Shown: in pieces, positions 15,374-48,617 of the stretch
Layout of the letters: each line of letters opens with the position of its first letter
Position numbering within the stretch: position 1 is the first letter of the stretch
NCBI GenBank assembly: GCA_903913865.1
Contig: CAIWMU010000039.1
Coordinates: 24,793 to 88,792, forward strand
Source: an uncultured Verrucomicrobia subdivision 3 bacterium
Lineage (GTDB): Bacteria; Verrucomicrobiota; Verrucomicrobiia; Limisphaerales; UBA8199
DNA length: 64,000 nucleotides
Direction of reading: 5' to 3'
Made by a program: the position numbers and the translations under genes
Notes under the pieces: model-generated
What the model was told of the DNA's origin: nothing
The model's database searches: none
Seen by the model: the letters and a program-made list of their open reading frames with translations, nothing else

Positions 15374-15402
15374 GCAGCGGGTCAATCCCGACCTTTTGAA
15401 GG

Positions 15403-15804
15403 CTACTTCAGGAAGTAAACCTCCTTGGTGTCGCCCCAGATCTTCCCCTTCGCAGCGGCATCCGGCAGGGGGGATTGGCACGGGTCGGTCTCCTTCCACC
15501 AGCGCACGGTCTCCGGATCGCCCGCCATCCGCTTCATGTCGGCCTCAAAGTTCTTCCCGGTGTATTCAAGATACGCAAACAGGTAGGTCTGCCCGTTGAT
15601 CTCCCGCTCGTGGATCGAGAAGTTCTGAATGTTGCAGGCCTTGATCATCCGGTTCACGGAAGGCCACGGATGGGCGTGCAGATCCCGGTAATAGGCCGCC
15701 TTCTCCGGCTTCAGCCCGGTGACCCAGGCGTAGCGCTGCGGAGCGGGACGCGTGGCGCAACCGGAGAGGATCAGCGCCAGCAGCAGACATTGGATGCTTT
15801 TCAT
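15403..15804 (-). CDS. Rhamnose-mutarotase-family protein with lipoprotein signal peptide
   Basis: Starts at ATG 15804 with MKSIQCLLLALILSGC (lipobox LSGC). The body is DUF718-like: YAWVTGLKPEKAAYYRDLHAHPWPSVNRMIKACNIQNFSIHE...FAYLEYTGKNFEADM. Confidence 0.8.
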   Translation of the reverse strand: MKSIQCLLLALILSGCATRPAPQRYAWVTGLKPEKAAYYRDLHAHPWPSVNRMIKACNIQNFSIHEREINGQTYLFAYLEYTGKNFEADMKRMAGDPETVRWWKETDPCQSPLPDAAAKGKIWGDTKEVYFLK

Positions 15805-15811
15805 AAAAGGC

Positions 15812-32736: not shown

Positions 32737-33225
32737 TCATAGCAGCGACCTGATATTCCCCAGCACCTCCGCGCTCTCGGCATCGAGCGTTGCGATTTCA
32801 TCCAGGATCTCCGCCGGGCTGCGGTGCGTGATTTCCTCGCCGCCGTTCGGGTTTTTCACGGAGAGGTCAAACGTCGTCGGGTCAATCGTCTGGGCGTCCA
32901 CGCTCCAACTCCTGGGCGAGTCGGCACAGGTCTTTTGTAGCGTCACGAACTGGATCAGGTCGTCGCCGGTCAGGGCGGTGTTGTGGTCAATCCGGCCGTC
33001 CCCGCCCTTGGGCGCGGCCCACGATTCCCAGCGATAGGGTTTGTCGAGGATGCCCGCGTATTTCTTCCCGTCGAGCGCGGCTTCGGTGGCCTTGTCCTGC
33101 TCGAGGGCGTCGAGATATTTCAGGAACAACAGCCAGGAGGTTTGCTCGGTGTAATCCAGTTCGCTGGTGCAACCGGCGTCTTTCCACAGAACGTCGTCAA
33201 TGTTTTTGAAGGCTTGTTCGAACAT
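32737..33225 (-). pseudogene. hsdM: Type I restriction-modification methylase (hsdM) remnant lacking the catalytic core
   Basis: From ATG 33225: MFEQAFKNIDDVLWKDAGCTSELDYTEQTSWLLFLKYLDALEQDKA (HsdM_N). This is joined in frame to a C-terminal tail (WSVDAQTIDPTTFDLSVKNPNGGEE). It is only 162 aa, and no SAM-binding or NPPF/Y block is present. Confidence 0.7.
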
Positions 33226-33543
33226 GGTGATCAGGTGGAAAAATCGAAATGGTGGTGGCGGCAGGTGAAATGCCCAGGCCGGGCGCACCGGAAGGGCGGC
33301 GCGTCATTGGCCGTTTGCAGGATGGGATTGGCAACGTCCATAGGTAACCCTCTGGGTATCATGCGCAAACAAGCCCGGGGTGGCGAGTGCAAAAGCATCC
33401 GCATGCAAGGCCACCGGGCGCGCATGAATGAAGGGTTCAACCGGATGTTCGCAGGCCGCGCGTGCGGAAGGGGGTGATTGGGAATTGGGGAACCGTAGGA
33501 CAGTATTGGGTGTGAAGGGTGGGGAATTCTGTGGGCCTGTTTT

Positions 33544-33756: not shown

Positions 33757-36700
33757 TCACTTCGCCCCGCTGCGCACCTCGGCGCTCAGGGTGTTCACAA
33801 GGGCCTTCAACTCTGCCACGCTCCTTCGCAATTCCGCGTTCTCCGCACGCAGCGCCGCCTCCCGCTCCTCAACCTTCCGGTTCAACCCCTGGATGGCCGC
33901 CAGTGCCACCCCCCCTTCATCCACCGTCGCGATGCTCGTCTCGTCCCGCCCCAGGCCAAACGCCGCCCGGAAATCCTGCGCCACAGGCCCGATGTGCTGC
34001 TCCCCGGGTTGGGCCTTGTAATTCCAACTCTGCACCGGCATGGCCACCACCTTCTCCAGGACCCCGGCAGAATCCACCGCCCCGAAGTTTTCCTTGAGAT
34101 TGCGATCCGAGGAGTTGACCCAGGTGTTCCCATCGCACCGGGCGTTCACCACCATGAACCTCGACGTCGGCGTGACATTGCCAACCCCCACACACCCGTT
34201 CGCAGCAAGATAAAGCGGGGTGCTCGTGTTGTTCCGGATGAAGGCCAGCCCGTCCCCTGTGACGCCTAGCTCTGGCGCGTAATTATACGACACGTCCCAT
34301 TTCACAGTGTCCGCCCCGAGTGCCCCGCCCCGGGCCGTGCTGTGAAACACAAGCCCCCCGTATCCGCCCATCTCCGGGGGACAGTTCAACACAATCCCCT
34401 CCCCATAGTTGCCACCATCGGAATCCACCCTCAGGTTTCTGGCAATAGTCGCCGACCCGCCGGCACTGATTGGCCCGGTGGCACCCACCGAGCCTGCATA
34501 GACACCCCCTGCCACACTCACCGCTCCCGTGACATACAATGAGTGGGTAAACCCTATGGTGCCAAACAGGCTGATAAGCGCCGCCCTGATCTCCATCCGG
34601 TCATCGATCCCGCTCTCCCCGATGCTCACATAATCCCCATCCCCGAACTTGATCAACTTCGGCGTCGGCCCCGTCTGGTTCGGCCCGATGCGCAGGATTC
34701 CGCCCCCGTTCCCATCCAAAAAGGTGTTCGTTCCGGTGAAGGTCTGGTTGCCGTTCCGGAGGGCCACATTGGCGCTGAGCCGGCCATCCGGCACCGTCCC
34801 CGCCGTCAGTTGTGCCCCGTCAAGCGCAGTCAACCCCGCCCCGCTCCCGCTGAACCCGGTCGCGGTCACGGTCCCATTCACGTGCAAGGCGCTCCGTGGG
34901 GCGTTCGTGTTGATGCCCACACCACCCGTGGCCCGGATCAGGAACTGGTTGTCGGCGGTCGATCTGAAGGGGTTCGTCGTCAGTGAATCCGCCCAGACGA
35001 ACGAACCCTGGTTCGTGGCCTGGGAATAGTATCCGGCCGCCATCGAATAGTGGCCGCTCGCTTTCGTGTAGGTGCCCATCGCAACCGAATCCCAGCCACT
35101 GGCCATCGAGCCCAACCCCATGGCGGTCGCATCATCGTTCGCGGCGATGGTGCTGCGGCCCATCGCAGTCGAGAAACTTCCACTTGCGGTCGTGGCAACC
35201 CCCATCGCGATAGAATCCAAACCACTGGCCACCGTATCCACTCCCAGTTCAACACCGCCAGCCCGCAAGCTGACCCGGTCACCCTGCACAATCATGTTCC
35301 CCACCACATGCAGCGGAGCTTCCGGCATCGCCGTGCCGATCCCCACAAGATCATTGGCCACAAGGTTCACCGGCACCGGTAGCGGTTTGAGCAACGTCAC
35401 CCCTCCCGGAAAGTAGGCTCCCACAACCAGGGTGCCTCCATCAAACGCAACCCCTATAGGGGAGTTCAGCATCCGCAGCCCAGCAAGGCCGTTCACAAAC
35501 CTCCCCTTCACCTGCGGGAGCGATGGATTGCTCACGTCCACAAGCGTCACAACGTTTTCATAGGTGGCCATTGCTGCGAGCAGGTTGCCTGAGAACGCCA
35601 CCCGGCTTACTCCCCCCATTCCACTATTGATCACTGCGCGCAACTGCGGGCTGGCCGGATTGCTCACATCCATCAGGTTCACAGCATCGGAACCCTGGGC
35701 CGCAATCGCCAGGAGACCATTCGTTGAAAAGGCAACCCCTCCATTCCCCAGGCTCAGGTTGGTGAACCCATTGACCCCGTTCCGGATCACCGAGCGCAAC
35801 TGCGGATCAGCAGGGTTGCTGACATCAATCAGGTTGACTGCACTGGAGTCATTCGCCGCCACTGCCAGCAAATTCCTGAAAAATGCCAAATGCCGGGGCC
35901 CCAGGAAATTCGTGAAGCCGTTGAATCCGTTCTGGATGTATCCAGCCAGGGTCGGAGCCCCCGGGTTGCTCATATTCACAAGTGTCACAGCAGCGTCGTT
36001 GTAGGCGCTGACCGCCATGATGTTGTTGCCCGAGAAGGCCACATCGTAAGCCCCTCCCAGTAGCGTGAACGCCCCCACCCCATCCCGCAACTCTGCCAGC
36101 TTCACCGGCGCTGCGGGATTTGTGACACTTATGATGGTCACCGCGCTGTCACTATATGCAGCCACCGCCAGAATACTCCCGTTGAACGCAGGGCCATTGG
36201 CACCCGCCAGATTCGTGAACACGGAACCGGCATCCGAATCACCCAATTGCGCAGTCAAAACAGGGTATTGCGGATTGCTGATGTCCATCAACGTCACCCC
36301 GCCTGAAACAGCTGCGACGGCCAGAACGTGGTTCGTGGATACCGCCACATCCCAGGCGCCACCCAGGTTGCTGTAGCCCAGATTGCCATTCTGCACCTGA
36401 AATTGGAGATTCGGCTGGTAAACCGTCGGTCCCGTGGAGATCTGCAGACCGCCCTGGGGCGTGCTCGTCCCGATCCCCACCCACCCGCTCCCGCTCACCT
36501 GGAGGGCATTCGTCACCCCGCCCCCCGGCGATCCAAGCTGTGTCACCGCCCCCGCCGTCACCCCCCCGGCTGTGCCCGCAAAAGTGGCGGTCCCCGCACT
36601 GGCCGCGCTCCCGGCATTCGGCGCATACATCGCATACGGGGTGGGCGTCAGCGGCTGCCTGGGGCTCAACGTTGTAAACGCAACCGCCCCATTCGTCCGC

Positions 36701-36992
36701 ACCCCGATCTCCATCCACCGGTTCGCGCCGCTGAACGGGTTCCCGAAATCCAATGAGACGGTAAACAGCCCGTTGCTCACCCCCACCCCATTCACCACCT
36801 GGCCAACCCCCACCTGATCCGCCCCGTTGACAGTCCCAAAAAGTCCAAATTGAAGGTCGTAACGCCCGTTGACCGCCCCGGCACCCCGGTCAACCTCCCC
36901 TGATAGGTGAATGCGGTGCCCTGGGCATAAATGCCGGATGTTCCAAGGGTCAAAACCAATACCCCTCCAAGCAGCAAGCGTGCGAATGTCAT
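33757..36992 (-). CDS. Secreted fibre protein (frameshifted): LVIVD repeats + Hep_Hag-like head repeats + S74 intramolecular-chaperone tail-fibre domain
   Basis: The signal peptide and first strand (MTFARLLLGGVLVLTLGTSGIYAQGTAFTYQGRL) lie in the frame of ORF 36792-37031, and the rest lies in ORF 33757-37038. The junction is a C4 run at 36876-36879. At least six (V/I)xLxDVSNPxxPxL units span residues ~225-550. Then come SIAMGVATTASGSFSTAMGRSTIAANDDATAMGLGSMASGWDSVAMG, and the C-terminal NSSDRNLKENF...GPVAQDF...VDEGGVALAAIQGL plus a coiled coil. Confidence 0.75.
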
Positions 36993-37086
36993 GTGTTTGT
37001 AAAGGAACATGCATCGCCCCACCAACACCAAATGTCAAACACCTGTCACCAGAAATTCAGCAGGAAGCCCCCCCGGCAGCTGAATA

Positions 37087-38013
37087 TCAGTTAACCCGCG
37101 CGGAACAGTTTGTGAATGTGCAATTGCCGATGGACCGGGTATGCAGATCGCAGCGCACCACATAGCCAACCCCCCGGACGCTGTGCAACAGCTTCTGCTC
37201 CATCCCAACCTCTATCTTGGTCCGCAGCTTCTGCACATAGACCTCAATCAAGTTCGAATCGAGGGTTAATTCCCCATCCCACACCTCCCGGGAAATGGTG
37301 TCGCGGGAACAGACACGTCCGGCGGACCGCATCAGAAACTCAAGAAGGCGGAACTCGCACTTGGTCAACTCCAAATGCCGCCCACCACGGTGCACCGTGC
37401 GGGACATGGTGTGCAGGATCAGATCCCTGACCTGCAGCACCAGTGGAACGACAGAACGGGGTGCCCGGAGCAGACGCTGCACCCGCAGGTTCAACTCCTG
37501 AAACTCATACGGCCATGTAAGGCAATCGTCCGCTCCTGCCTCCATTCCACGCACCCGCCCCGCAGAACCCCCTTCCCGGCAGATCAGCAGCACAGGCCGG
37601 TCATCCCCGCTCGCGCGCAAACGCTTCACCAGACCCGGACCCGCATTCCGACCTCCCCCAAGGTCCACGATGATGACTTCACACAATTGCGCGGAAATCG
37701 CAGCATGCCTCGGCAGCGTGGCGGACGGAAATTGAACCGGAAAACCAACCCCCCGGAGCGCCCCGGCCAGCGTTTCAGCCGTCCTGAAGTCATCCGCCAC
37801 CACCAAAACCTGCCGGGTGCCGGCCAAATCCGCCGGAGGCTGTGGCATGACCGGAGGCTTGCCCGGGCTGCCAACCGGCTCTGCCTGCTCGGAGAAATCA
37901 TCAAGATCCGGATGCCCCGGCCGCCCCTTGCACACAGGCTCCCCAATACCAATAGCCTTGCGTGCCTGCCCTGCGGAAAATACCCGGCTTACCCCGAACT
38001 TTTTGATCTTCAT
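37087..38013 (-). CDS. Atypical OmpR-family response regulator (degenerate receiver, Cys/His C-terminal tail), paralogue 1
   Basis: Start at ATG 38013. After a ~65-aa N-terminal extension, the receiver keeps ADD and the VIIVDLG Asp. It has LLIC in place of the conserved T/S and LTWPY in place of the conserved KPF. The wHTH is LLEFLMRSAGRVCSR...LLHSVRGVGYVV. The tail is RCDLHTRSIGNCTFTNCSARVN. Confidence 0.8.
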   Translation of the reverse strand: MKIKKFGVSRVFSAGQARKAIGIGEPVCKGRPGHPDLDDFSEQAEPVGSPGKPPVMPQPPADLAGTRQVLVVADDFRTAETLAGALRGVGFPVQFPSATLPRHAAISAQLCEVIIVDLGGGRNAGPGLVKRLRASGDDRPVLLICREGGSAGRVRGMEAGADDCLTWPYEFQELNLRVQRLLRAPRSVVPLVLQVRDLILHTMSRTVHRGGRHLELTKCEFRLLEFLMRSAGRVCSRDTISREVWDGELTLDSNLIEVYVQKLRTKIEVGMEQKLLHSVRGVGYVVRCDLHTRSIGNCTFTNCSARVN

Positions 38014-38151
38014 GACAATGTTGAAAGAGTGACGGTGGAGTGGTTCCCGACATATCAGCCCGCCCCATGAATCCCACATGTCGTCCCCGGAACCAACTTC
38101 CACCGTCACGGAAACCTTAACACCCCTTTATGAAGATTCGATGAAACGAAC

Positions 38152-38178
38152 ATTAATTTCTGTTCATAATTCATGATC
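38152..38178 (-). promoter_or_regulatory. AT-rich motif upstream of atypical regulator 1 (candidate promoter/operator)
   Basis: attaatttctgttcataattcatga lies ~140-165 nt upstream of ATG 38013. A similar motif lies at the same distance upstream of the paralogue (39323-39347). Confidence 0.35.
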
Positions 38179-38257
38179 CCCAACGGCGTGACCGGGTGTG
38201 GTCTCGGCATTGCGGGCGGGCGACCCGGCTTCCCGCGTCAATGCCCGGAGGGAGGGG

Positions 38258-39181
38258 CTAGTTGGAGGCGACAACACATGCGGTATAGACGCAGTGTTTC
38301 GCTGATGCACTGTGTTGGCCGCAACGCATCACGTAGCCCACGCCCCGGATGCTGTGCAGCACCTTTGCCTCGGTGCCGACCTCAAGCTTGCCACGCAACC
38401 TCTGCACATAAACCTCGATCAGGTTGGAATCGGAAGTCAGTTCGCCGCCCCACACGGCATCGGAAATGGCCTCCCGGGTGCAGGACCGGCCCGCCGAACG
38501 CATCAGAAATTCCAAAAGGCGGAATTCGCGTTTGGTCAGTTCGATTTCCCGGCCACTCCGGTGCGCGGTGCGCCTCAGGGTGTCGAGCGCCAGATCCCGG
38601 ACATGCAGCACCGGGGAGGTTGCAGGACTTGCACGCCGCATCAGGGAGCGCACACGCAGAACGAATTCCTCCATCTCAAACGGCCTGGAGAGACAGTCAT
38701 CCACCCCCGCCTTGAATGCCTTGATCCGGGCGGCGGCATCAGCCCCGGGACAGATCAGCAGTATGGGCCGGTTGTCCCCGGCAGCCCGCAGCCTCCTCAC
38801 CAGCACAATCCCGCCCGTGCCATCACCCTCGTAGCTCACCACGATCACGCAACACATGTGCTTCAGGATCGAGGAGTCCACCAGCAGACGGTCCATCAGG
38901 ATTTCGGCTTTCACTCCTGCCCCCCGTAGGGAGTCATACAACCTGTCAACCGGGTCGGCCATTTCGCCCACAACCAGGACGTTCATCCCGGCGAGCCTTG
39001 CCCGCGTCGCCTCAAGAGGATCCAGAGCCCCGCCATTGGTTGCGTTGACAGAGGAATTACGGTGGTTCCGGCGGATGCGGGCCCGCTGCACCCTGCGCCC
39101 CCGGATTACGGACTCACCAATGGTCGGGCTTTCGCCGCCGCCTTTGCCGTAATCAGCAGCTCGCGTCACTTTGTTCTTCAT
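38258..39181 (-). CDS. Atypical OmpR-family response regulator (pseudo-receiver lacking the phospho-Asp, Cys/His tail), paralogue 2
   Basis: The acidic pocket is replaced (VLVVGEMAD). The phospho-site reads VIVVSYEG (Ser, not Asp), with LLIC and LSRPF further on. The wHTH is LLEFLMRSAGRSCTR...LHSIRGVGYVM. The tail is RCGQHSASAKHCVYTACVVASN. Confidence 0.8.
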   Translation of the reverse strand: MKNKVTRAADYGKGGGESPTIGESVIRGRRVQRARIRRNHRNSSVNATNGGALDPLEATRARLAGMNVLVVGEMADPVDRLYDSLRGAGVKAEILMDRLLVDSSILKHMCCVIVVSYEGDGTGGIVLVRRLRAAGDNRPILLICPGADAAARIKAFKAGVDDCLSRPFEMEEFVLRVRSLMRRASPATSPVLHVRDLALDTLRRTAHRSGREIELTKREFRLLEFLMRSAGRSCTREAISDAVWGGELTSDSNLIEVYVQRLRGKLEVGTEAKVLHSIRGVGYVMRCGQHSASAKHCVYTACVVASN

Positions 39182-39312: not shown

Positions 39313-39347
39313 AAAAATGTAAATTAATTTGTTTTAATTATTCAAAG
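39313..39347 (-). promoter_or_regulatory. AT-rich island with perfect palindrome AAATTAATTT (candidate promoter/operator of atypical regulator 2)
   Basis: aaaaatgtaaattaatttgttttaattattcaaag is the only strongly AT-rich stretch between the kinase stop and ATG 39181. On the minus strand it reads TTGAAT-18 nt-TACATT. Confidence 0.35.
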
Positions 39348-39416: not shown

Positions 39417-40463
39417 TCAGGCCGCCAGCGGCATGATGATGGTGAAGGAGGTCTTGCCATCCGCCCGGGATTCAACCTGAATGTTCCCACCGTGCTCCCT
39501 GACAATCCACTGGCAGATCGCCAATCCAAGTCCCGATCCCTCAACATCCTGCGCACCCCGGACAAACCGCTCAAAGATACGCCCTTGCAGCTTCGCCGGA
39601 ATCCCGGGACCGGTGTTTGTCATCTCGATCTCCGCCATCTTTTCCCATTTGCGCAACGCCATCACAATGTGTCCGCCCTGGGAATTGTGCTTCACCGCAT
39701 TGTCGGCAAGGTTCAAAAGCATTTGGCGCAACCGGTGCCGGTCCCCCAGAACCACCGCATCCTGGCAGTCTCTTAATTCGACCGTGATATGCGCCGGTTG
39801 GGCCAGCACCAAGGTGTCATCATAACACTCTGTCATGAGCTCCTTGAGTGGAACAGGATTCCTGTCGAGCCGGATCTGCCCGGCATCCGCCTTCGCAAGC
39901 AGGGTCAGGCCGTCCACCAGCTTGGCCAGCCGCTCCAGCTCATCGATCTGCGAATGGATCCATTCCCGCTGGTCCGGCTTGAGCCCGTCCGCATCCCTGA
40001 GCGCGGTTTCCATCTCCGCCCTCATGACCGTCAGCGGGGTCTTGAGTTCATGGGAGGCATGGAGTGTGAACTCACGGACCTGTTTGAACGAATTCTCCAG
40101 CCGGTCGGCCATCTTGTTGAACGAGGCCGCCAGGCGGTCCACCTCGTCCCCGTTTTGGGTCCGTGGCAGCCGCTCGGTCAGGTTCTCCGCGTTAAACCGC
40201 TCCACACCCTCTGCCAGCTGACCTATGGGGGACAGGGACCGGAGAATCAGCAATGTTCCAAGCACGAGGACAAGGGGGGATATGGCCGTAAGGATGACCT
40301 CGGCGCGGGCATCAAACTTTTTGAAGGAACTTTCCTCGATGCCCAAATCCCTCAACAGCTGGGGCACGTGCACGAACTCGTGGTAGGCCAGAGCCACCAG
40401 CAACAAAAGCCCAACACCGGTAACGATCAGATAGCGGGAGATGAGCCTGTTGCGCAGCCTCAT
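39417..40463 (-). CDS. Sensor histidine kinase (CusS/heavy-metal-sensor-like, short periplasmic loop)
   Basis: Two TM segments, a HAMP-like linker, H-box HASHELKTPL, N-box LLNLADNAVKHN, G-boxes NTGPGIP and GSGLGLAI. Confidence 0.9.
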   Translation of the reverse strand: MRLRNRLISRYLIVTGVGLLLLVALAYHEFVHVPQLLRDLGIEESSFKKFDARAEVILTAISPLVLVLGTLLILRSLSPIGQLAEGVERFNAENLTERLPRTQNGDEVDRLAASFNKMADRLENSFKQVREFTLHASHELKTPLTVMRAEMETALRDADGLKPDQREWIHSQIDELERLAKLVDGLTLLAKADAGQIRLDRNPVPLKELMTECYDDTLVLAQPAHITVELRDCQDAVVLGDRHRLRQMLLNLADNAVKHNSQGGHIVMALRKWEKMAEIEMTNTGPGIPAKLQGRIFERFVRGAQDVEGSGLGLAICQWIVREHGGNIQVESRADGKTSFTIIMPLAA

Positions 40464-41134
40464 GCCTCTTCCTTCAGGATGTAGCCCACTCCCCGCACGC
40501 TGTGAAGCAGTTTGGCCGGGAATCCCTCATCGATCTTCTCCCGGAGCTTCCGGATATAGACGTCAATGATGTTCGATCCCGGATCAAAGTGGTAGTCCCA
40601 AACCTTCTCGAAGATCATCATCCGGGTGCAAATCCGCCCGGGGGAACGCATCAAAAACTCCAGAAGCCGGTATTCCCGGCTGGTCAACTCAATGGTCCGC
40701 CCACCCCGTTGCGCCTTGCGCAGCCCCGTGTCCAGTGTCAGATCCGCGACATGAACCAGTCCGGATCTTGAATCCGTTCCCCTTCGGCACAGTGTCTCCA
40801 CCCGGGCCACAAGCTCCTCCAACGCGAACGGCTTGGACAGGTAATCATCCGCCCCGGCCTTCAACCCCTCCACCCGCTCATTCACCTCCCCGCGCGCCGA
40901 AAGCAGCAGCACAGGAGTGTGGTTCCCCCGCATCCGGGCCTGCCGCAGCACACTCAGCCCATCCCGCCCCTTCAACATGATGTCGAGCACCACCACATCA
41001 AAAGGAGTCCCCATCATCGCAAGGAACGCCTCATCCCCATCATGAAGCACATCCACCGCGCAACCCTCTGTCTTCAAGGCCTTGCTGATGAACCCTGCCG
41101 TCTTGCGGTCATCCTCAACTACCAATACTCGCAT
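40460..41134 (-). CDS. OmpR-family response regulator, canonical (CusR/CopR-like)
   Basis: Start at ATG 41134: MRVLVVEDDRKTAGF...VVVLDIMLKGRDG...PVLLLSARG...GADDYLSKPF. The wHTH is YRLLEFLMRSPGRICTR...LLHSVRGVGYIL. Its stop overlaps the kinase start (ATGA). Confidence 0.9.
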   Translation of the reverse strand: MRVLVVEDDRKTAGFISKALKTEGCAVDVLHDGDEAFLAMMGTPFDVVVLDIMLKGRDGLSVLRQARMRGNHTPVLLLSARGEVNERVEGLKAGADDYLSKPFALEELVARVETLCRRGTDSRSGLVHVADLTLDTGLRKAQRGGRTIELTSREYRLLEFLMRSPGRICTRMMIFEKVWDYHFDPGSNIIDVYIRKLREKIDEGFPAKLLHSVRGVGYILKEEA

Positions 41135-41366
41135 ACCCAACTCTTGCAAAGCCCAGCCCCATTGGCAAGGCGGTGGACACGTTTCCACTCCCAATTGCCG
41201 ATCCAACACCTGCCCAGCGCCCTCGCGCCACCCCCCGAAAAGACTACCCCAAACCCGCCATCCCTCCTGAAAATCCGGAAAAACGGCTGATAAATTGCAA
41301 AAAACCCCAACTTTTTCACTTTTTCTCTTGAAAGCCGTTTTCATCCGCTCTACTCATTCCAGCACT

Positions 41367-41669
41367 ATGGCAAAAGCAATTACCAAACCTCTCACTAAGT
41401 CACAGATCACCGCATCCATCGCGGAAACCGTCAGTCTCCCAAAGACCCAGACTGTTCAGGTCATCGAAGCCCTCGTGGCTCTGGCCTACAAGAACGCAAA
41501 AAACTCATTCACCATCCCCGGCTTGGGTAAGCTGGTGCTCGTGAACCGCAAAGCCCGCGTGGGTCGCAATCCCTCCACCGGCGCCGCCATCAAGATCCCG
41601 GCCAAGCGCGTGTTGAAGTTCCGCGTTGCCAAGGCCGCCAAGGACGCGATCCTCGGCGTCAAGAAGTAA
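41367..41669 (+). CDS. hup: HU/IHF-family nucleoid-associated DNA-binding protein
   Basis: 100 aa from ATG 41367: ...IPGLGKLVLVNRKARVGRNPSTGAAIKIPAKRVLKFRVAKAAKDAI (HU arm motif R-NP-TG). Confidence 0.9.
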   Translation: MAKAITKPLTKSQITASIAETVSLPKTQTVQVIEALVALAYKNAKNSFTIPGLGKLVLVNRKARVGRNPSTGAAIKIPAKRVLKFRVAKAAKDAILGVKK

Positions 41670-41992: not shown

Positions 41993-42823
41993 ATGCAAAC
42001 TAGTCACGCAAGTCCCCGCAGGTCAGGTTTTACCCTGATCGAACTTCTGGTGGTCATCGCCATCATAGCCATTCTCGCAGCCATGCTGCTGCCCTCCCTT
42101 GGGCGGGCCAAGGTCAAAGCCCAGGGCATCACCTGCATGAACAACGGCCGCCAGATGATGATGGCCTGGCGGTTCTATGTGGATGATCACGAGGACAAGG
42201 TTCCACCCTCCTACTGGCCACCCAATTCCTGGGTCAATGGCAATCTCGATCTCACCCCCGCAAACCCCGTCAACTGGGATGTCACCAGGGATTTGCAGAA
42301 AAGCCTCCTCTGGCCCTACTGCGGGAACAACGCCGGCATCTGGCGCTGCCCCGCGGACCGCGCCCTCGGCAAGCCCATGACAGGCCCCCAGGCGGGTCAG
42401 GTGGTCCCCCGCATTCGCAGCATCTCCATGAACGCCTGGTTCAAAAGCTCGGATGTGGCCGATTTCGGACCTCCGGGATGCCGCATCTACAAAAAACTAG
42501 GCGATGTGAACACTCCGGGGCCGTCCATGACCTGGCTCTTTCTCGATGAGCGTGAGGACAGCATCAACGACGGAGAGTTTTGTGTCAGCATGTTTGGATG
42601 GCCCGACCAGCGCGGCTCATCAATGATCGTCGATTTCCCGGCCAGCTACCACAACGATGCGGGCGGCCTGTCATTTGTGGATGGCCACGCCGAGATCAAA
42701 AAGTGGAAGGATCCACGCACACGCCCGGTGCTCCGCACAGGCGTGGGCCTGCCTCTCAATGTGCCGTCCCCAAACAATCCGGACGTTTTTTGGCTGATGG
42801 AGCGCAGCACCCGAATAGACTGA
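41993..42823 (+). CDS. Prepilin-type N-terminal cleavage/methylation protein of the H-X9-DG family
   Basis: [26 protein letters not shown] at the N-terminus. The C-terminal H-X9-DG motif reads [14 protein letters not shown]. Confidence 0.9.
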
Positions 42824-43003
42824 CCCGACCCGTCGCAACCCATGCCGCACACCCCTGCAGGGTGCGCGGAAATGGCGTCCAAATCTGCAGGATGAGGAGC
42901 CTGAGGGTTGCCAGCCCTCAAACCGGATCCCTTGGATGTGGGGAATTTTTTTGAATTCCAGCGAATTCCGGGGCGGTGTCCGGCGTCCAACATTGTGATT
43001 TAC

Positions 43004-44710
43004 ATGGCGAAGAAATCCGTCTGGCTGTGGCTTCTGCCGCTGTTTCTTGCGGCGGGATGCACGGCGAACCATTACCGCAAATCTGCGGACCGGGAGGTTT
43101 ATGCCACGATCCGGCAAAAAACCGGCAAGGTCCGGAACATGGATCCGGCCTTCTCCATTGAACAGACCAACACCTCCCTGCTCCAAAGCCTCCCCATCTC
43201 CAGCAAGGTGGAAGAATTTCTGGGCACGGATGGGGAAACCGAGCGGGATGCCCGGCAGGTGGCGCTGGAGGATGCCCTCGCACTCGCCGTGCAAGGCAGC
43301 CGCTCCTACCAGGCCCGCAAGGAGCAACTCTACATCTCCGGCCTCGCGCTGACGCTCGCACGCCACCAGCTTACCCCCATCTTCGGCTCCTCCGCAAACG
43401 CCGCTTACGGCGGCCAGACGGAACAGGCCGTCAAGGTGGGCATCGATGAAGTGACCGGCCAGCCAAAGGTGATCGTGAGCGACAGTCTCGTGGAGCAGCA
43501 GCGCGTCTCCGGATCCGGCAACGTGGGGGCCAGCTGGCTCATCCGCGGCGTTGGCCGCCTGAGCACCTCCATGACCGCCGACTTCCTCCGGTTCGTCTCG
43601 GGCGATCCCCGCGTGACCACCTCCTCCCAGCTCAGTGCCACCCTCGTCCGCCCCCTCCTGAGGGATGCCGGTTTCAAGCAGCAGGCCGAGGCCCTGATTC
43701 AATCGGAGCGGCAGCTGCTCTATGACCTCCGGGAGTTTACCCGCTTCCGGAAGGATTTCAGCGTGCAGGTCGCCACCGCCTACTACCGCGTGCTCGGCAA
43801 CCGGGATTCGGTCCGGAATAGTTATCTCAACCTGCAAAGCTCCCGCAAGAATGCCGAACGCAGCCGCGCCCTCGCCAGGGAGGGGCGCATCACCCAGTCC
43901 GACCTCGGCCGGTTGGAACAGCAGGCCCTGACCGCCGAAAGCTCCTGGATCAACGCCGTCCGCGATTACAAACAGGCCCTCGACAACTTCAAAATCCAGC
44001 TCGGCCTCCGCCTGGAGGATAAAATCGTCCTCGATGACCGCGAACTCGGCCGCCTCCGCATCGACCATCCCACCCTGAATGTGGATGACTCCATAAAGGT
44101 GGCCCACGCCGCCCGGCTCGACCTGCTCAACACCCGGGAACAGTTGGAGGATTCGGAACGTAAAGTGGCCCTGAACAAGAACATGCTCCTGCCCAAAGTC
44201 GATGTCTCCACCACTGTCAACATCAGGAGCGATCCCAACCAGACCACCGGTTTCCCCCTGCCCGATCTCAACCGCTACAATTGGAGCGCCGGCCTCAACA
44301 TCGACCCCGGCATCGACCGCAAATCGGAGCGCAACTCCTACCGCACGGCCATCATTTCCCGCAACCAGTCGATCCGCGCCGTCACACAAAAGGAGGACGA
44401 CATCAGCCTCCAGATCCGCGACAGCTGGCGGACCCTCGACCAGGCCAAACGCAGCTATGAAATCAGCGCCATCGGCGTGAAGCTCGCCGAGCGCCGCGTG
44501 GAGGAGCAGGGCCTGCTCGCGGAACTCGGCCGCGCCAAGGCCCTCGACCAGGTGGACGCCCAGAATTCCCTCATCGACTCGAAAAACCAGCTGACCCAGG
44601 CATTGGTGACCCACACCATCGCCCGCCTCCAGTTCTGGAACAACATGGGCATCCTGTATATCAAGGAAAACGGACAGTGGGAGGAGATTCAAAATGCAAA
44701 AGGCAATTAA
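43004..44710 (+). CDS. TolC-family outer-membrane efflux protein (lipoprotein-type signal)
   Basis: Start at ATG 43004: MAKKSVWLWLLPLFLAAGC. Two OEP-type repeats with coiled-coil character (ALALAVQGSRSYQARKEQL...; SYEISAIGVKLAERRVEEQ). Confidence 0.8.
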   Translation: MAKKSVWLWLLPLFLAAGCTANHYRKSADREVYATIRQKTGKVRNMDPAFSIEQTNTSLLQSLPISSKVEEFLGTDGETERDARQVALEDALALAVQGSRSYQARKEQLYISGLALTLARHQLTPIFGSSANAAYGGQTEQAVKVGIDEVTGQPKVIVSDSLVEQQRVSGSGNVGASWLIRGVGRLSTSMTADFLRFVSGDPRVTTSSQLSATLVRPLLRDAGFKQQAEALIQSERQLLYDLREFTRFRKDFSVQVATAYYRVLGNRDSVRNSYLNLQSSRKNAERSRALAREGRITQSDLGRLEQQALTAESSWINAVRDYKQALDNFKIQLGLRLEDKIVLDDRELGRLRIDHPTLNVDDSIKVAHAARLDLLNTREQLEDSERKVALNKNMLLPKVDVSTTVNIRSDPNQTTGFPLPDLNRYNWSAGLNIDPGIDRKSERNSYRTAIISRNQSIRAVTQKEDDISLQIRDSWRTLDQAKRSYEISAIGVKLAERRVEEQGLLAELGRAKALDQVDAQNSLIDSKNQLTQALVTHTIARLQFWNNMGILYIKENGQWEEIQNAKGN

Positions 44711-46607
44711 GTTCCTGACCCGCCTGTGGACCGGCCCGCGCTGGCGGCTCCTCGCCGTCGCGGCCCTGCTGCTCGGGCTGGGGTGGTACCTGTTCCGGGG
44801 GGATGGCCGGGGCAGTGGAAACATGCCCACATTCGCCGCCCGGCGCGGCCCGCTTGAGATCAACATCCTCGAGGGGGGCAGCCTGCAGGCCCTGGAATCT
44901 CAGGAAATCAAATGCGACGTCCACGTCGGCTATCAGGGCACGAAAATCCTCCGCATCGTGGAGGAGGGCTACCTCGTCACCGACGAGGATGTCAAAACCA
45001 ACAAGGTCCTCGTGGAGCTGGATTCCTCCGACCTCGAAAAGCAGATCGTCCAGCAGGAAATCCAATACGAATCAGCCGCCGCAACCCTCATCGACGCCCA
45101 GCAAAATTACGAAATCCAGCTCAACCAGAACCAGAGCGACATCAAGACCGCCGAACAGAAAACCCGCTTCGCCAGGATGGACTTCGACAAATTCCTCGGC
45201 GATGCCGTGACCACCCGCATCATCCAGGAGGTGGGCCTGGATGCACTGCTGGCCGCTGCAGGCACCAACGATGTGGAACAGACCCTCCGCGCAGAAGGCG
45301 TGGAGGATAAAACCTCCGCGCCACAACCCCCGCCCCAGAAGCACGCTCCCGGCGGGCCGCCCCGTCTGCCTCCCGGATTCAATCCCCCACCACCACCACC
45401 GGCATCGAGTGCTCCGGAACCTCCCCCAGCCCCCGCTCCGGAGCCGGTGCTATCCCTCCCCCCCGCCTTCACAAACGTTGTTCTGGTCGATTTCTCCCAA
45501 TACGCCCGGCTCGACGCGCTCGGGGATGGCGAGGCCCGCCAGAAGTTGCGCAAATTCGACGATGACCTCCAGGTTTCCCAGAAGGAGTTGGGCCAGGCAA
45601 ATTCGACCCTCGAAGGCACCCAGCGCCTCTTCGAGAAGGGCTTCGTCACCAAGCTGGAGATGCAGCGGGATGAAATCGCCGCCGACAACAGCCGCCTCAA
45701 GGTCCAGACGGCCCAGAGCGCCCGCGATCTTTACCTCAAATACGACTTCCTCAAGTCAGCCGAGGAGTCCCTCTCCAAATATGCCGAATCGGTGCGCGAA
45801 CTGGACAAGGCCCGACGCGTGGCCATCTCCAAGGCCGCCCAGGCCAGGGCCCGGCTTAAATCAGCCCAGGGCCAGCACGAGATCCAGCTCCGCCAGCGCA
45901 AAGAACTGACCGAGCAGCGGGAAAAATGCCTGCTCCACGCCACCAAGACCGGGCTCGTGGTTTACGGCGGCGGTCGTGATGACAACTTCTTCGGCGGGGA
46001 GGAGCGCATCCGCGAGGGCGCATCCGTCCGCGAGCGCCAGGCCATCATCACCATCCCGGATATGACCCGCATGGCCGTCAATGTGAAGGTGCACGAAACC
46101 TACATCAAAAAGATCCGCAAGGGCCTCAAGGCCCGCATCACCATCGACGCCTTTGCCGACAAGACCCTCACCGGCGAGGTCACAAAAGTCGCTGTGCTGC
46201 CCGATTCCCAGAACCGTTGGATGAATCCGGATATGAAGGTCTATCTGACCTCCGTCGCCATCGATGGCACCCAGGACTGGGTCAAGCCCGGCATGAGCGC
46301 CAAGGTCGAGATCCTCGTCAGCCGGATTGATGCCTGCCTTCAGGTGCCGGTTCAGGCGGTCACCTTCGATGGCGACAAACAGGTCTGCTACCTCCTCCGG
46401 GGACTCAAAACCGAGCGGCGCGAAGTGGATGTCGGGGAGTTCAACGATGAATTCATCGAAATCAAGGGCGGCCTGAAAGAGGGGGACCGCGTGCTCCTGC
46501 GCCTGCCGGATGGGGTTCAGAAGGACCGCAAGGAAACCGGCACCGAGCCCGCAAAAGCCCCCGAACCGGCCAAACCCGCCCCGCCACAGCCTCCTGCCAA
46601 AAAGTAA
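44694..46607 (+). CDS. HlyD/MacA-type periplasmic adaptor (membrane fusion protein) with proline-rich insert
   Basis: N-terminal TM segment, lipoyl/barrel motifs (IKCDVHVG..., AIITIPDMTRMAVNVKVHE), a long coiled coil, and a Pro-rich stretch at 45307-45468. It overlaps the TolC gene by 17 nt. Confidence 0.8.
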   Translation: MQKAIKFLTRLWTGPRWRLLAVAALLLGLGWYLFRGDGRGSGNMPTFAARRGPLEINILEGGSLQALESQEIKCDVHVGYQGTKILRIVEEGYLVTDEDVKTNKVLVELDSSDLEKQIVQQEIQYESAAATLIDAQQNYEIQLNQNQSDIKTAEQKTRFARMDFDKFLGDAVTTRIIQEVGLDALLAAAGTNDVEQTLRAEGVEDKTSAPQPPPQKHAPGGPPRLPPGFNPPPPPPASSAPEPPPAPAPEPVLSLPPAFTNVVLVDFSQYARLDALGDGEARQKLRKFDDDLQVSQKELGQANSTLEGTQRLFEKGFVTKLEMQRDEIAADNSRLKVQTAQSARDLYLKYDFLKSAEESLSKYAESVRELDKARRVAISKAAQARARLKSAQGQHEIQLRQRKELTEQREKCLLHATKTGLVVYGGGRDDNFFGGEERIREGASVRERQAIITIPDMTRMAVNVKVHETYIKKIRKGLKARITIDAFADKTLTGEVTKVAVLPDSQNRWMNPDMKVYLTSVAIDGTQDWVKPGMSAKVEILVSRIDACLQVPVQAVTFDGDKQVCYLLRGLKTERREVDVGEFNDEFIEIKGGLKEGDRVLLRLPDGVQKDRKETGTEPAKAPEPAKPAPPQPPAKK

Positions 46608-46612
46608 CCCCT

Positions 46613-47299
46613 GTGGCCGACCCCATCCTTCAGTTTCGCAACGTCCAGAAGACCTACCAGATGGGGGAGGTGCGGGTCCACGCCCTGCGGGGAATCACGT
46701 TTGATATCTTCCCCGGCGATTACATCAGCATCATGGGCCCCTCCGGTTGCGGCAAGTCCACCCTGCTGAACGTCCTCGGCTGCCTGGACCGCCCCACATC
46801 CGGCAACTACCTGCTGGGCGGCGAGGATGTCTCGGGAATGGATGATGATGCCCTCTCCGCCGTGCGCGGATCCCGGCTCGGGTTCGTCTTCCAATCCTAC
46901 AACCTCATCCAGCAACTCACGGTTCTGGAGAACATCGAGATCCCCCTTTATTATCAGGGAAAGCCCGAGGATGAAACCCGGGAGCGGGCCCGGGTGCTCG
47001 CAACCAAGGTCGGTCTGGCGGACCGCCTCGACCACAAACCGTTTGAACTCTCCGGCGGGCAGCAGCAGCGGGTGGCCATCGCCCGCGCCCTGGTGAATGA
47101 TCCCCTCCTCATCCTCGCAGACGAACCGACCGGCAACCTCGATTCCGTCTCAGGTGTGGAAATCCTCAGGCTGTTCGATGAACTGAACAGCCAGGGCAAG
47201 ACCCTCATCATCGTCACCCACGACACCACCGTCTCCCTGCGGGCCAGCCGCAGCATCCGCCTGCGGGATGGGAACATTGAAAGCGATGTCCGCCAGTAA
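46613..47299 (+). CDS. ABC transporter ATP-binding protein (MacB/LolD type)
   Basis: GTG start. Walker [10 protein letters not shown], signature [15 protein letters not shown], Walker [13 protein letters not shown]. Confidence 0.9.
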
Positions 47300-48617
47300 C
47301 TCCATCCCGCTCCACAAGCTCGTCGAGGGCCTTTCCCCGACCCGCCTCAGGCGCACCCTGCGCCTCGGCTGGCGCAGCCTCTGGCTCCACCGCCTCCGCT
47401 CCCTCCTCACCGTCCTCGGCATCGTGTTCGGCGTCTGCTCTGTCATTGCCATGCTCGCCATCGGCGAGGGGGCCAGCTACGAGGCCCAGGAACAGATCAA
47501 AAACCTCGGCAGCCAGAACATCATCCTCCGCAGCACCAAACCGCCTGAGGAACAAAAACCCACCGACAAGGGCAGCCAGAGTTCCGTCCTCCAGTATGGC
47601 ATCACCTATCCCGATGTGCACCGTATCCGCTCCACGATTCCCGGGGTCTCCGTCGTCCTTCCCGCCCGCAACATCCGCGAATACGTCTGGCACATCAGCC
47701 GCCGTGTCGATTGCGAAGTGGTTGGCACCGTCCCGTGGTATCCGGAAATGCGCAACCACCAGGTCGCCCAGGGCAGGTTTTTCTCGGATGCCGACATGCA
47801 GGAGCGGCGCAGTGTCTGCGTGCTGGGGGCCGAAATGGTTCCCTCCCTGTTCCCCATGGAATCCCCCCTCGGCAAGCATGTCCGCGTGGCTGGTAATTAT
47901 TATCAGGTGATCGGCGTCATGGAGCCTTCCTCCCGCGTCGGCAAAACGGAGGAGCCGCAGGAATCCGGCCGCACGATCCTGAACCGCATGTTCATCCCTC
48001 TCGAAACCGCCAAACTCCGCTACGGCGAGGTGCTCATGCGCCGCCGCAGCGGCAGCTTCGAGGCCGAACGGGTCCAGCTGCACGAGGTCACCATCAAGGT
48101 CAGCTCCCTCGAAAATGTGCCCGGGGTGGCCGATGCCGTCCGCACTGTCCTGGAGCGCAACCACAAGAAGAAGGATTACGAAATCGTCGTGCCTCTGGAA
48201 CTGCTCAAGCGGGCCGAACGCACGAAGCAGATTTTCAACATCGTTCTCGGCTCCATCGCCGCCATCTCCCTGCTGGTCGGCGGCATTGGCATCATGAACA
48301 TCATGCTCGCCAGCGTGACGGAACGGACCCGCGAGATCGGCATCCGCCGCGCCCTCGGCGCCCGCCGCCACGACATCATCTCCCAGTTCCTCGTCGAGAC
48401 GGTCCTCCTCTCGGGTGTGGGCGGCGTCCTGGGGGTTCTCCTCGGCATCGCCATCCCCTTCATTGTGACCTATGCCGCAGGCATGAAGACCATCGTCACC
48501 CTCTGGGCCCCCCTCCTCGCCTTCACGATCTCCGCCATGGTGGGCGTGATCTTCGGCATCTATCCCGCTTTCCGCGCTGCCAGCATGGATCCGGTGGAAG
48601 CCCTGCGCCACGAATAG
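47286..48617 (+). CDS. ABC transporter permease (MacB_PCD + FtsX domains)
   Basis: Start at ATG 47286, overlapping the ATPase gene end. The N-terminal TM is [27 protein letters not shown], followed by a periplasmic domain. The C-terminal FtsX region reads [19 protein letters not shown]. Confidence 0.85.

Follow-up and report, generated by a model that had tools for sequence, protein, structure and literature searches.

The window analysed here, a 64,000-nucleotide stretch of DNA from an uncultured Verrucomicrobiota bacterium, carries a cluster of regulatory genes on its minus strand (Table 1). The first-pass annotation had reported two tandem OmpR-type paralogues, and both ORFs were found, each with a strong Trans_reg_C match (76.4 bits for paralogue 1 and 80.2 bits for paralogue 2; cut-off, 26.2). 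The Response_reg model scored 31.8 bits for paralogue 1, just above the cut-off of 30.2, and 25 bits for paralogue 2, below it. The PDB sequence matches of the paralogues include DrrD, PrrA, MtrA, and RitR, and the best Foldseek matches of paralogue 2 were PrrA, KdpE, and DrrD, with RitR, HP1043, and GlnR also matched. On the basis of Pfam, the PDB sequence matches, and Foldseek, both proteins belong to the OmpR/PhoB family. The AF2 models predicted the REC and wHTH domains of both proteins with pLDDT values of 80 to 95, the receiver having a (beta-alpha)5 fold.

Table 1. Features of the regulatory locus, with positions in the 64,000-nucleotide window
Feature	Position	Strand	Description
Large secreted protein gene, downstream	33757..36992	minus	LVIVD repeats, YadA_head, Peptidase_S74 C-terminal chaperone (Pfam)
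Paralogue 1 CDS	37087..38013	minus	308 aa, ATG 38013, stop TGA 37087-37089; OmpR/PhoB-type atypical response regulator
Paralogue 1 CHCC tail	37090..37152	minus	CDLHTRSIGNCTFTNCSARVN, 21 aa, C-x2-H-x6-C-x4-C
Paralogue 1 wHTH DNA-binding domain	37153..37455	minus	Pfam Trans_reg_C, residues 243-317 of the 340-aa ORF
Paralogue 1 pseudo-receiver	37456..37815	minus	DD and D kept; T/S to C (LLIC), Y to C (DDCL), K to W (LTWPY)
Paralogue 1 N-terminal extension	37816..38013	minus	~66 aa, Pro/Gly-rich, predicted disordered
AT-rich upstream element, paralogue 1	38144..38173	minus	TGAATTATGAACAGAAATTAATGTTCGTTT; repeat families D1 and D6
Paralogue 2 CDS	38258..39181	minus	307 aa; aspartate-less atypical OmpR/PhoB regulator
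Paralogue 2 CHCC tail	38261..38323	minus	CGQHSASAKHCVYTACVVASN, 21 aa, C-x2-H-x6-C-x4-C
Paralogue 2 tail, hypervariable six-residue loop	38294..38311	minus	SASAKH / RESAKH / RESANN / GTEGMR
Paralogue 2 wHTH DNA-binding domain	38324..38626	minus	Pfam Trans_reg_C, residues 210-285
Paralogue 2 pseudo-receiver (ALR)	38627..38986	minus	DD to EM, D to S (VVSYEG), T/S to C, Y to C, K to R
Paralogue 2 N-terminal extension	38987..39181	minus	~65 aa, basic patch RGRRVQRARIRR, predicted disordered
AT-rich upstream element, paralogue 2	39315..39344	minus	TGAATAATTAAAACAAATTAATTTACATTT; repeat families D1 and D6
Histidine kinase	39417..40463	minus	HAMP-HisKA-HATPase_c (Pfam); very short extracytoplasmic loop
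Canonical CusR/CopR-like OmpR-family regulator	40460..41134	minus	224 aa, five receiver residues intact

Paralogue 1 starts at ATG 38013 (MKIKK) in its orthologues and in the majority of gene calls, and the 340-aa ORF beginning at GTG 38109 is over-extended. With this start, both paralogues therefore begin with MK[IN]K and are 307 to 308 aa long. The N-terminal extension of about 65 aa described at first pass was recovered on each protein, with AF2 pLDDT values below 50 for paralogue 1 and of 34 to 36 for paralogue 2, and neither extension matched any Pfam family when searched in isolation. In paralogue 1, the dN/dS of the extension was 0.6, 8 of the 11 population-variable sites fall within it, and the copy at the related locus L003 contains an in-frame 18-nt indel there. 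The paralogue 2 extension showed a dN/dS of 0.46 and has equal length in L001. For the wHTH domain, dN/dS was 0.17 to 0.29, and a three-way alignment bore out the proposal that this domain is common to both paralogues and the canonical regulator (LLEFLMRS.GR.C.R ... LHS[VI]RGVGY).

The two genes stem from a tandem duplication, specific to this lineage, of a 1171-bp unit that includes its own AT-rich upstream element. The identity between the paralogues is only about 50%; thus, the C-terminal tail that they share is older than the duplication, and the duplication itself is old. The AT-rich element matched the window at just two places and never matched shuffled sequence, and the copy upstream of paralogue 1, which is conserved in L001, may be a promoter or operator. 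The neighbouring canonical regulator scored 93.7 bits with Response_reg and 86.6 bits with Trans_reg_C, and the histidine kinase is its syntenic partner (L001, L003, and L068-L072). The order of kinase, paralogue 2, paralogue 1, and LVIVD/S74 gene was the same in every locus recovered, with the LVIVD/S74 gene always the next one after paralogue 1. In the window only, this gene is frameshifted near 36885 by a 1-nt deletion. We infer that this surface-protein gene is a likely regulatory target of the paralogues.

The receiver residues were judged by column analysis against 89 canonical homologues, which retained D, S/T, and K in 89/89 cases. The canonical five-residue set (DD, D, T/S, and K) is incomplete in both paralogues. 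The analysis agreed with the earlier reading that paralogue 1 retains its Asp residues with T/S replaced by Cys and K by Trp, and that paralogue 2 has lost both the acidic pocket (DD to EM) and the phospho-Asp (D to S). Both paralogues have Cys at the switch positions T/S and Y, and in both a further Cys replaces the F located six residues ahead of the phospho-site, a pattern shared by 0/89 canonical homologues. Counting three receiver and three tail positions, each protein has six derived Cys residues that the other shares. As a separate observation, the replacement of the aromatic switch residue (Y in ADDYL) by Cys in both paralogues had been missed by the first-pass annotation.

Pseudo-receivers, or atypical response regulators, and aspartate-less receivers (ALRs) have been defined previously (PMC12632262). 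Judged by their residues, both receivers are true pseudo-receivers under this definition; the ALR class applies to paralogue 2 only (VVSYEG), since paralogue 1 keeps the Asp (IIVDLGG). The receivers had been described as decayed. The catalytic residues are indeed lost, but the decay itself was not supported by receiver dN/dS values of 0.11 to 0.12 for paralogue 1 and 0.15 for paralogue 2. This strong purifying selection indicates that the receivers were repurposed rather than decayed. On these values, ongoing pseudogenisation of the receivers was also rejected.

A degenerate DNA pattern for the wing followed by C-x2-H-x6-C-x4-C matched only the two paralogue tails in the window and was found in 0/100 shuffles, and the tails are, as first described, of 21 residues with the same length and spacing in both proteins. 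The list of conserved tail positions held for C1, H4, C11, F/Y13, and C16, which were retained in five of the six orthologous tails, whereas S7, T14, and N21 vary among orthologues. The retained positions are present in the paralogue 2 orthologues of L003 and L001 (CGQHRESANNCVYTACVVASN and CYQHGTEGMRCVYTACVAASN) and unchanged across 28 population variants. A divergent L003 allele of paralogue 1 (CDLHARCIRDCSFQTCAARGS) keeps C1, H4, C11, F13, and C16, with 21 of 63 nt differing. The tail dN/dS, estimated from 21 codons in three lineages, was 0.18 for paralogue 1 and 0.15 for paralogue 2, similar to those of the folded domains, and the tail dS was saturated at 1.2 to 1.7. Synonymous changes were present at the putative ligand codons H4, C11, and C16 (TGC/TGT and CAT/CAC). 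The high dS indicates that conservation acts at the protein level and not at the DNA level, and it rules out a DNA-level constraint on the tail such as a terminator, operator, or RNA. In addition, Rfam gave no matches and no terminator-like sites overlapped the tails. An assembly artefact was ruled out by identical tails in many independent ENA, Logan, NCBI, and JGI assemblies. From these alignments, the CHCC tail is judged to be a translated, selected coding feature.

A rather improbable alternative is that the tail arose recently by nearly neutral read-through of the ancestral stop, functionless and with its pattern kept merely by short divergence. Such an origin would fit the extremely narrow distribution of the tail, its highly variable loop, the lack of predicted structure and of a Pfam match, and the loss of the tail from one orthologue by nonsense mutation. 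However, paralogues that are about 50% identical share the same tail length and all four ligands, the dS is saturated as against a dN/dS of 0.15 to 0.18, the C11, C16, and H4 codons changed synonymously, and the L003 paralogue 1 allele kept C1, H4, C11, and C16 through its nucleotide changes. Cysteine is normally among the first residues to be lost under neutrality.

The loop between H4 and C11 is hypervariable in paralogue 2. Of the 11 residues that are polymorphic in this protein, 4 lie within its 6 positions (Fisher p = 1.3e-5), and of the 5 nucleotides that distinguish the window from L003, 4 fall in it. With regard to a diversity-generating or gene-conversion origin of the loop, no donor-like sequence was found in the tail of the other paralogue. 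AF2 gave the tail pLDDT values of 28 to 45, with essentially no secondary structure and no packing against the wHTH; because only about five of the alignment rows carried a tail and AF2 does not model metals, this low confidence is weak evidence against the proposed tail function. The isolated tails (n = 3) matched no Pfam family at E <= 10, including the known zinc-finger, zinc-ribbon, and knuckle models.

These features bear on the possibility, which we consider unlikely, that the tail is purely structural, either as a Zn-stabilised wing cap or as a dimer- or partner-binding peptide. The two proteins would then be constitutive regulators controlled by expression level only, perhaps set via the neighbouring canonical two-component system. 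Conserved ligand-like residues around a loop that is a polymorphism hotspot are consistent with an exposed structural knuckle. The atypical regulators ChxR and HP1043 are constitutively active, expression-level control has been proposed for CmrT (PsR review, PMC12632262), and the upstream element is common to both paralogues. However, the AF2 models show no packing of the tail against the wHTH, and L001 paralogue 1 lost the tail and kept the gene, which argues against a fold-critical role.

Among the sequences searched, only a single uncultured lineage of Verrucomicrobiota carries the tail. The DNA pattern G-x-G-Y-x2-R-C-x2-H-x6-C-x4-C gave 32 matches in 185,579 species genomes (one each), all of them chance matches with no OmpR context. 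A related pattern gave 32 matches in metagenome contigs, none of them real; the sole OmpR wing among these (L047) stops after CDVHTE. No related loci were found when paralogue 2 was searched against metagenomes. A 36-aa wing-plus-tail profile, run against 1.84 billion representative proteins, recovered only this lineage and one chance repeat protein, with no related tail outside the lineage, and the tail was absent in the 220 best homologues. Thus, the expected conservation of the tail in homologues holds for close orthologues but not outside the lineage, and the tail pattern, as a signature to be sought in other proteins, was limited to the lineage of the window, with genomes, metagenomes, and proteins otherwise negative.

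In the most distant relative (L001/L002), C1 of paralogue 1 changed from TGC to TGA and C11 to Ser. At least one paralogue can therefore do without the tail. The remainder of the L001 gene is still under purifying selection. A TGA aligned to Cys is a classical Sec/Cys signature; here the 20 codons after the TGA are still in frame with the same stop, and the identical TGA is present in two independent assemblies. Nevertheless, it is barely credible that this TGA encodes selenocysteine and that the tail is a Sec/Cys redox site. C11 was concurrently lost to Ser, gene callers end the protein at the TGA, and Sec machinery was not seen on the short contigs of the lineage. The reading was rejected because no SECIS-like hairpin follows the L001 UGA (MFE of -15.7 kcal/mol, z = -0.4 versus shuffles).

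The receivers appear to have lost normal phosphotransfer chemistry while retaining a folded pseudo-receiver, and with this loss the two proteins are most likely phosphorylation-independent DNA-binding regulators. We tentatively favor the reading that they regulate the adjacent surface-protein gene under thiol or metal control, although we hold it with less than even confidence. The proteins may act as homodimers, or as heterodimers in which one paralogue pairs with the other or with the neighbouring canonical regulator. Their likely targets would be the promoters of the paralogues themselves and the large surface-protein gene that directly follows them. Cys/His chemistry has probably taken over control. 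The tail, which is located on the DNA-contacting wing, may bind a metal ion, with Zn(II) or Cu(I) as the likeliest candidates; its C-x4-C spacing is unlike that of a classical zinc knuckle. By analogy with the CopY tail and the CorE domain, the tail and the two receiver switch Cys residues would modulate dimerisation or DNA binding.

The six derived Cys residues common to both proteins, including those at both receiver switch positions, could instead form a thiol-disulfide redox switch and not a metal sensor, in which oxidation creates intra- or intermolecular disulfides among the tail Cys, or a disulfide between the receiver Cys at T and Y, and so alters dimerisation or DNA binding. We regard this as somewhat unlikely. 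Cys-controlled atypical regulators are known (RitR, HP1021, and relatives; PMC12632262), RitR structures were among the Foldseek and PDB matches, and a flexible tail of low predicted confidence is consistent with a disordered redox-active segment. However, a pure disulfide mechanism leaves the invariant tail His4 unexplained, and the linkers LLRAPRSVVPLVLQV and LMRRASPATSPVLHV lack the Cys of the RitR type. It is very improbable that the C-H-C-C residues ligate an Fe-S cluster for O2, NO, or iron sensing. The Cys3His site of IscR and the C-terminal cluster of SoxR are precedents, and a set of three Cys and one His that spans 17 residues close to the C-terminus of a DNA-binding domain resembles them. 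The spacing is unlike known cluster motifs, no sequence similarity to any Fe-S regulator was found by Pfam or the profile search of 1.84 billion proteins, and the neighbourhood lacks Fe-S assembly or target genes.

A more far-reaching form of thiol or metal control, which we consider doubtful, is an undescribed type of one-component sensor that combines Cys at the Y-T coupling pair with the wing knuckle and whose heterodimers integrate metal or redox state. The Cys residues at the receiver Thr and Tyr positions would act as a disulfide or metal bridge mimicking the active or inactive conformation, and heterodimers of paralogues with different hypervariable knuckle loops would control the large surface-protein gene.

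The locus was compared with known systems. Of the curated families, the heavy-metal response regulator subfamily TIGR01387 (cztR_silR_copR) scored highest with each of the three regulators, at 159.5 for paralogue 1, 144.1 for paralogue 2, and 230.1 for the canonical regulator against a cut-off of 279.2, which places them outside the family. The kinase scored best with TIGR01386 (218 bits, below the cut-off of 292.55), matching over its cytoplasmic part only. The nearest sequences to both paralogues were CusR/CopR-like canonical regulators (45 to 48%) and not any named atypical regulator; among the NCBIfam models, NblR ranked second for paralogue 2, with a score far short of its cut-off. The canonical neighbour shares the standard 224-aa architecture of CusR/CopR, whereas the paralogues lack phospho-acceptor chemistry, and the kinase, unlike CusS-like kinases, has no periplasmic metal-sensor domain.

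Precedents for the favored reading include RitR, HP1021, CmrRST, and BldM-WhiI (PMC12632262). ChxR, HP1043/HsrA, GlnR, NblR, and CmrT have the same REC-like and Trans_reg_C wHTH domains with one or more of the five catalytic receiver residues lost and are presumed to be phosphorylation independent. As in the present locus, a kinase in C. difficile cmrRST is accompanied by several OmpR-type regulators that include at least one pseudo-receiver. None of the described atypical regulators has a C-terminal Cys/His tail, an N-terminal extension of about 65 aa, or Cys at both switches. The first-pass view that the tail is unfamiliar from described regulators was upheld, with no equivalent in Pfam, PDB sequences, or literature searches. 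In RitR (Streptococcus pneumoniae) and HP1021/CemR, cysteine chemistry replaces Asp phosphorylation, in parallel to the control proposed here, and RitR combines an aspartate-less receiver with an OmpR-type wHTH, like paralogue 2. The redox Cys lies in the REC-DBD linker of RitR and in the alpha1-beta2 loop of HP1021 (PMC12632262). The paralogues have neither Cys, and their candidate site is the CHCC tail together with the Cys at T and Y; with no such Cys in the linkers RLLRAPRSVVPLVLQVRDL and SLMRRASPATSPVLHVRDL, they fall outside the RitR type.

The closest mechanistic analogue of the proposed tail role is CopY (Enterococcus hirae and S. pneumoniae), which carries a short Cys-rich motif at the C-terminus of a winged helix. 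This motif, CxCxxxxCxC, binds Zn(II) or Cu(I), changing dimerisation and DNA binding (PMC12648655, PMC5646241). CopY differs in its BlaI/MecI-type domain, its four Cys with no His, and its other spacing, and it has no receiver and no sequence similarity to the paralogues. With a C-x2-H-x6-C-x4-C tail on Trans_reg_C, the paralogues are not of the CopY type, and the resemblance is functional only. In the ECF sigma factors CorE and CorE2, a Cys-rich C-terminal extension was shown by experiment to sense metals directly (PMC8999054). There the extension replaces the usual controller, an anti-sigma factor, just as phosphorylation would be replaced here. An additional Cys motif elsewhere in CorE is also required, paralleling the receiver Cys here (PMC8999054). 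CorE differs in being a sigma factor with a longer extension and a different motif.

The locus adds to the known kinds represented by atypical response regulators, CopY, CorE, and RitR. Its impact is limited because it is known from a single uncultured Verrucomicrobiota lineage, in which one orthologue has already lost the tail. The activation mechanisms of pseudo-receivers were described in a 2025 review as a mystery (PMC12632262), and the locus is a clean natural example in which the phosphorylation residues were replaced stepwise, partly in paralogue 1 and completely in paralogue 2, while both conformational switches of the receiver gained Cys and the DNA-binding wing acquired a selected Cys/His tail. 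Should the tail prove to bind metal or to sense oxidation, it would illustrate a simple way in which a two-component regulator can evolve into a one-component sensor, and it would offer a small module for grafting onto further regulators of the OmpR type.

Both paralogues showed strong Trans_reg_C and weak Response_reg matches in Pfam, and a three-way alignment with the canonical regulator, the neighbouring OmpR-family response regulator, bore out the wHTH common to all three proteins that the first-pass annotation had described. A 340-aa ORF of paralogue 1 starting from GTG 38109 was rejected as over-extended; orthologues and most gene calls begin with MKIKK (ATG 38013), which parallels the MKNK start of paralogue 2. 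The best curated model for the paralogues and the canonical regulator was the heavy-metal regulator TIGR01387 and that for the kinase was TIGR01386, with all scores below the curated cut-offs. The heavy-metal kinase model matched the cytoplasmic part of the kinase only, and about 28 residues separate its two predicted transmembrane helices, thereby indicating that the kinase lacks a CusS-type periplasmic sensor. The system is CusRS-like, a likeness that does not demonstrate membership. The G+C content of the window is ~60%, and its nearest public relative is the Verrucomicrobia MAG GCA_026397795.1.

Features of the regulator locus and its surroundings (window positions)
Feature	Position	Strand	Remarks
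HsdM-like ORF	32737-33288	minus	
Secreted surface protein, ~1084 aa	33757-36992	minus	LVIVD repeats, YadA-head repeat, Peptidase_S74 C-terminal chaperone
Paralogue 1, 308 aa	37087-38013	minus	fourth in gene order
Switch-residue Cys of paralogue 1	37522-37524, 37579-37581		Thr/Ser (LLIC) and Tyr (DDCL) sites
AT-rich element, 30 nt	38144-38173		upstream of paralogue 1
Paralogue 2, 307 aa	38258-39181	minus	third in gene order
Switch-residue Cys of paralogue 2	38693-38695, 38750-38752		Thr/Ser (LLIC) and Tyr (DDCL) sites
AT-rich element, 30 nt	39315-39344		upstream of paralogue 2
HAMP-HisKA-HATPase histidine kinase	39417-40463	minus	second in gene order
Canonical OmpR-family response regulator, 224 aa	40460-41134	minus	first in gene order
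HU/IHF-like DNA-binding protein	41364-41669	plus	divergent from the two-component genes
Prepilin-type gene and efflux operon	41993-48600	plus	beyond the HU/IHF-like gene

Searches of 5.8 billion proteins found these paralogue genes in only one lineage. Below 81% identity, the next matches were canonical 224-aa CusR/CopR-like regulators with 45-48% identity, none of which carried the tail. Three divergence levels with identical gene order were recovered: the window's own population, represented in many ENA, Logan, NCBI and JGI assemblies; the locus L003, whose DNA is ~99-100% identical to the window except in some patches; and the loci L001 and L002, with a paralogue 1 protein 81% identical. 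When 1.84 billion representative proteins were searched with a profile of the tail and the preceding wing, this lineage alone was returned; scanning 185,579 species genomes and the metagenome contigs for the tail pattern gave 64 matches, all of them chance occurrences. Conservation of the tail in homologues, named earlier as a check, thus held within the lineage, apart from paralogue 1 of L001, and in no other OmpR-family protein examined.

The 21-residue tails come directly after GVGYV[VM]R in the three-way alignment and read CGQHSASAKHCVYTACVVASN in paralogue 2 and CDLHTRSIGNCTFTNCSARVN in paralogue 1. A degenerate DNA pattern of the wing plus C-x2-H-x6-C-x4-C matched the window at these two tails only (0/100 shuffles), and the two CHCC tails were thus confirmed by both alignment and pattern. 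The corresponding tails are CGQHRESANNCVYTACVVASN and CDLHARCIRDCSFQTCAARGS in L003, and paralogue 2 of L001 carries CYQHGTEGMRCVYTACVAASN. Once orthologues were added, C1, H4, C11, F/Y13 and C16 remained among the residues listed earlier as conserved, and S7, T14 and N21 dropped out. The tail Cys and His residues were invariant across 28 population variants. In contrast to the remainder of the gene (22/843 nt), the L003 paralogue 1 tail differed from the window at 21/63 nt (p = 5e-15), and this divergent tail is accompanied by a ~200-nt insertion downstream. The divergent allele takes in the 3' end of paralogue 1 together with the spacer between that gene and the surface-protein gene (L003 10880-11190, approximately window 37045-37165) and looks like a recombination patch. 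Despite this divergence, it retains C1, H4, C11, F13, C16 and the 21-residue length. In paralogue 2, the protein is polymorphic at 11 positions in all, 4 of them in the six-residue loop between H4 and C11 (p = 1.3e-5), and the window differs from L003 at 5 nucleotides, 4 of which again fall in this loop. Invariant ligands with a free loop would be the pattern expected of a small exposed metal knuckle, which is not proof of one.

The Nei-Gojobori dN/dS of the tail was 0.15 for paralogue 2 (window versus L001) and 0.18 for paralogue 1 (window versus L003), comparable to those of the folded domains (REC, 0.11-0.15; wHTH, 0.17-0.29). Because the synonymous divergence of the tail was saturated (dS 1.2-1.7) and the ligand codons themselves changed synonymously (TGC/TGT at C11 and C16, CAT/CAC at H4), the tail is conserved as protein and not through an overlapping DNA or RNA element. 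Rfam gave no matches, and no terminator-like site was found on the tails. The proposed reading of the tail as a metal- or redox-sensing knuckle in place of phosphorylation control is plausible, and the selection signatures support it in part.

The receiver substitutions described earlier were reproduced against 89 canonical homologues, all of which keep D, S/T, K and Y/F (89/89 each). Paralogue 1 showed T/S->C, Y->C and K->W, and paralogue 2 showed DD->EM, D->S, T/S->C, Y->C and K->R. The Cys at the aromatic switch residue of both paralogues had been overlooked. Three derived receiver cysteines are common to the two proteins, at the T, the Y and an F six residues before the phospho-site; in the 89 homologues, Cys occurs at none of the three. 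In canonical CheY-like receivers, T and Y couple phosphorylation to the output face. We infer that the cysteines at the T and Y positions could form a disulfide or metal bridge. Published definitions (PMC12632262) place paralogue 1 among the pseudo-receivers and paralogue 2 among the aspartate-less receivers. These degenerate receivers had been called decayed; they are instead under strong purifying selection and are thus working pseudo-receivers. The N-terminal extensions are translated but only loosely constrained, with dN/dS of 0.46-0.61, conserved length and a sole, in-frame indel, and that of paralogue 1 carries most of its population polymorphism.

AlphaFold2 folded the receiver and wHTH confidently in both paralogues and left the tails (pLDDT 28-45) and N-terminal extensions (pLDDT 34-50) unstructured; Pfam had no match in either segment. 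With about five tail-bearing alignment rows and no metal modelled, the AlphaFold2 result is weak evidence against a folded tail. In L001, the paralogue 1 tail is truncated by a TGA at C1, followed in frame by DLHTRSIVDSTFSNCSGRVN with the same stop and with C11 replaced by Ser, an arrangement found in two independent assemblies. The stretch after this TGA forms no SECIS-like hairpin (z = -0.4), which makes selenocysteine at this codon implausible. The tail is therefore lineage-confined, partly dispensable and without predicted structure.

The spacing of the paralogues is exactly 1171 bp, and the repeat takes in a 30-nt AT-rich element upstream of each gene, so that the two genes are probably regulated in common. 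This element has no further copy in the window and is kept in L001. Downstream of it, a TTCAT-N6-TTCAT direct repeat was seen in the paralogue 1 copy and a TAACAT-N6-ATGTTA palindrome in the paralogue 2 copy; these sequences and the AT-rich repeats are candidate operators. The conserved order of kinase, paralogue 2, paralogue 1 and surface-protein gene suggests the last as a target of the regulators. This gene begins at ATG 36992 on the minus strand with a signal peptide (MTFARLLLGGVLVLTLGTSGIYAQ). One T is missing in the window near 36885 (ACCGG-GGTG, compared with ACCGGTGGTG in L003 and the related loci L068-L072), and the reading frame is therefore shifted after the signal peptide, either by an assembly error or in a strain-specific pseudogene. 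Just past the surface-protein gene, L003 carries type I restriction-modification genes (HsdM, HsdS) and a Fic-domain gene (14956-19106); the HsdM-like ORF of the window appears fragmented. On the other side of the locus lie the HU/IHF-like gene, a gene for a prepilin-type N-methyl protein and a TolC-like/membrane-fusion/ABC (MacAB-like) efflux operon, all possible targets of the canonical regulator.

Well-known atypical OmpR-type regulators include ChxR, HP1043, GlnR, NblR and CmrT, and RitR and HP1021 use cysteine-based control in place of phosphorylation (PMC12632262). The defining linker Cys of RitR is absent from both paralogues. Short Cys-rich C-terminal tails serve as metal switches in the winged-helix repressor CopY (PMC12648655, PMC5646241) and in the sigma factors CorE and CorE2 (PMC8999054), but the paralogues differ from CopY in both tail motif and DNA-binding family. 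Both paralogues have what defines an OmpR/PhoB-family protein and a pseudo-receiver regulator. Literature searches found no Cys/His tail on an OmpR wing, in agreement with the first-pass annotation, nor any account of a receiver with Cys at both of its switch residues. Altogether, the CHCC-tailed pseudo-receiver OmpR regulators are a previously undescribed, lineage-restricted variant of known regulators. Confined to one uncultured lineage, they would provide a tidy natural case in which the phospho-switch of a response regulator has apparently been swapped for Cys/His chemistry.
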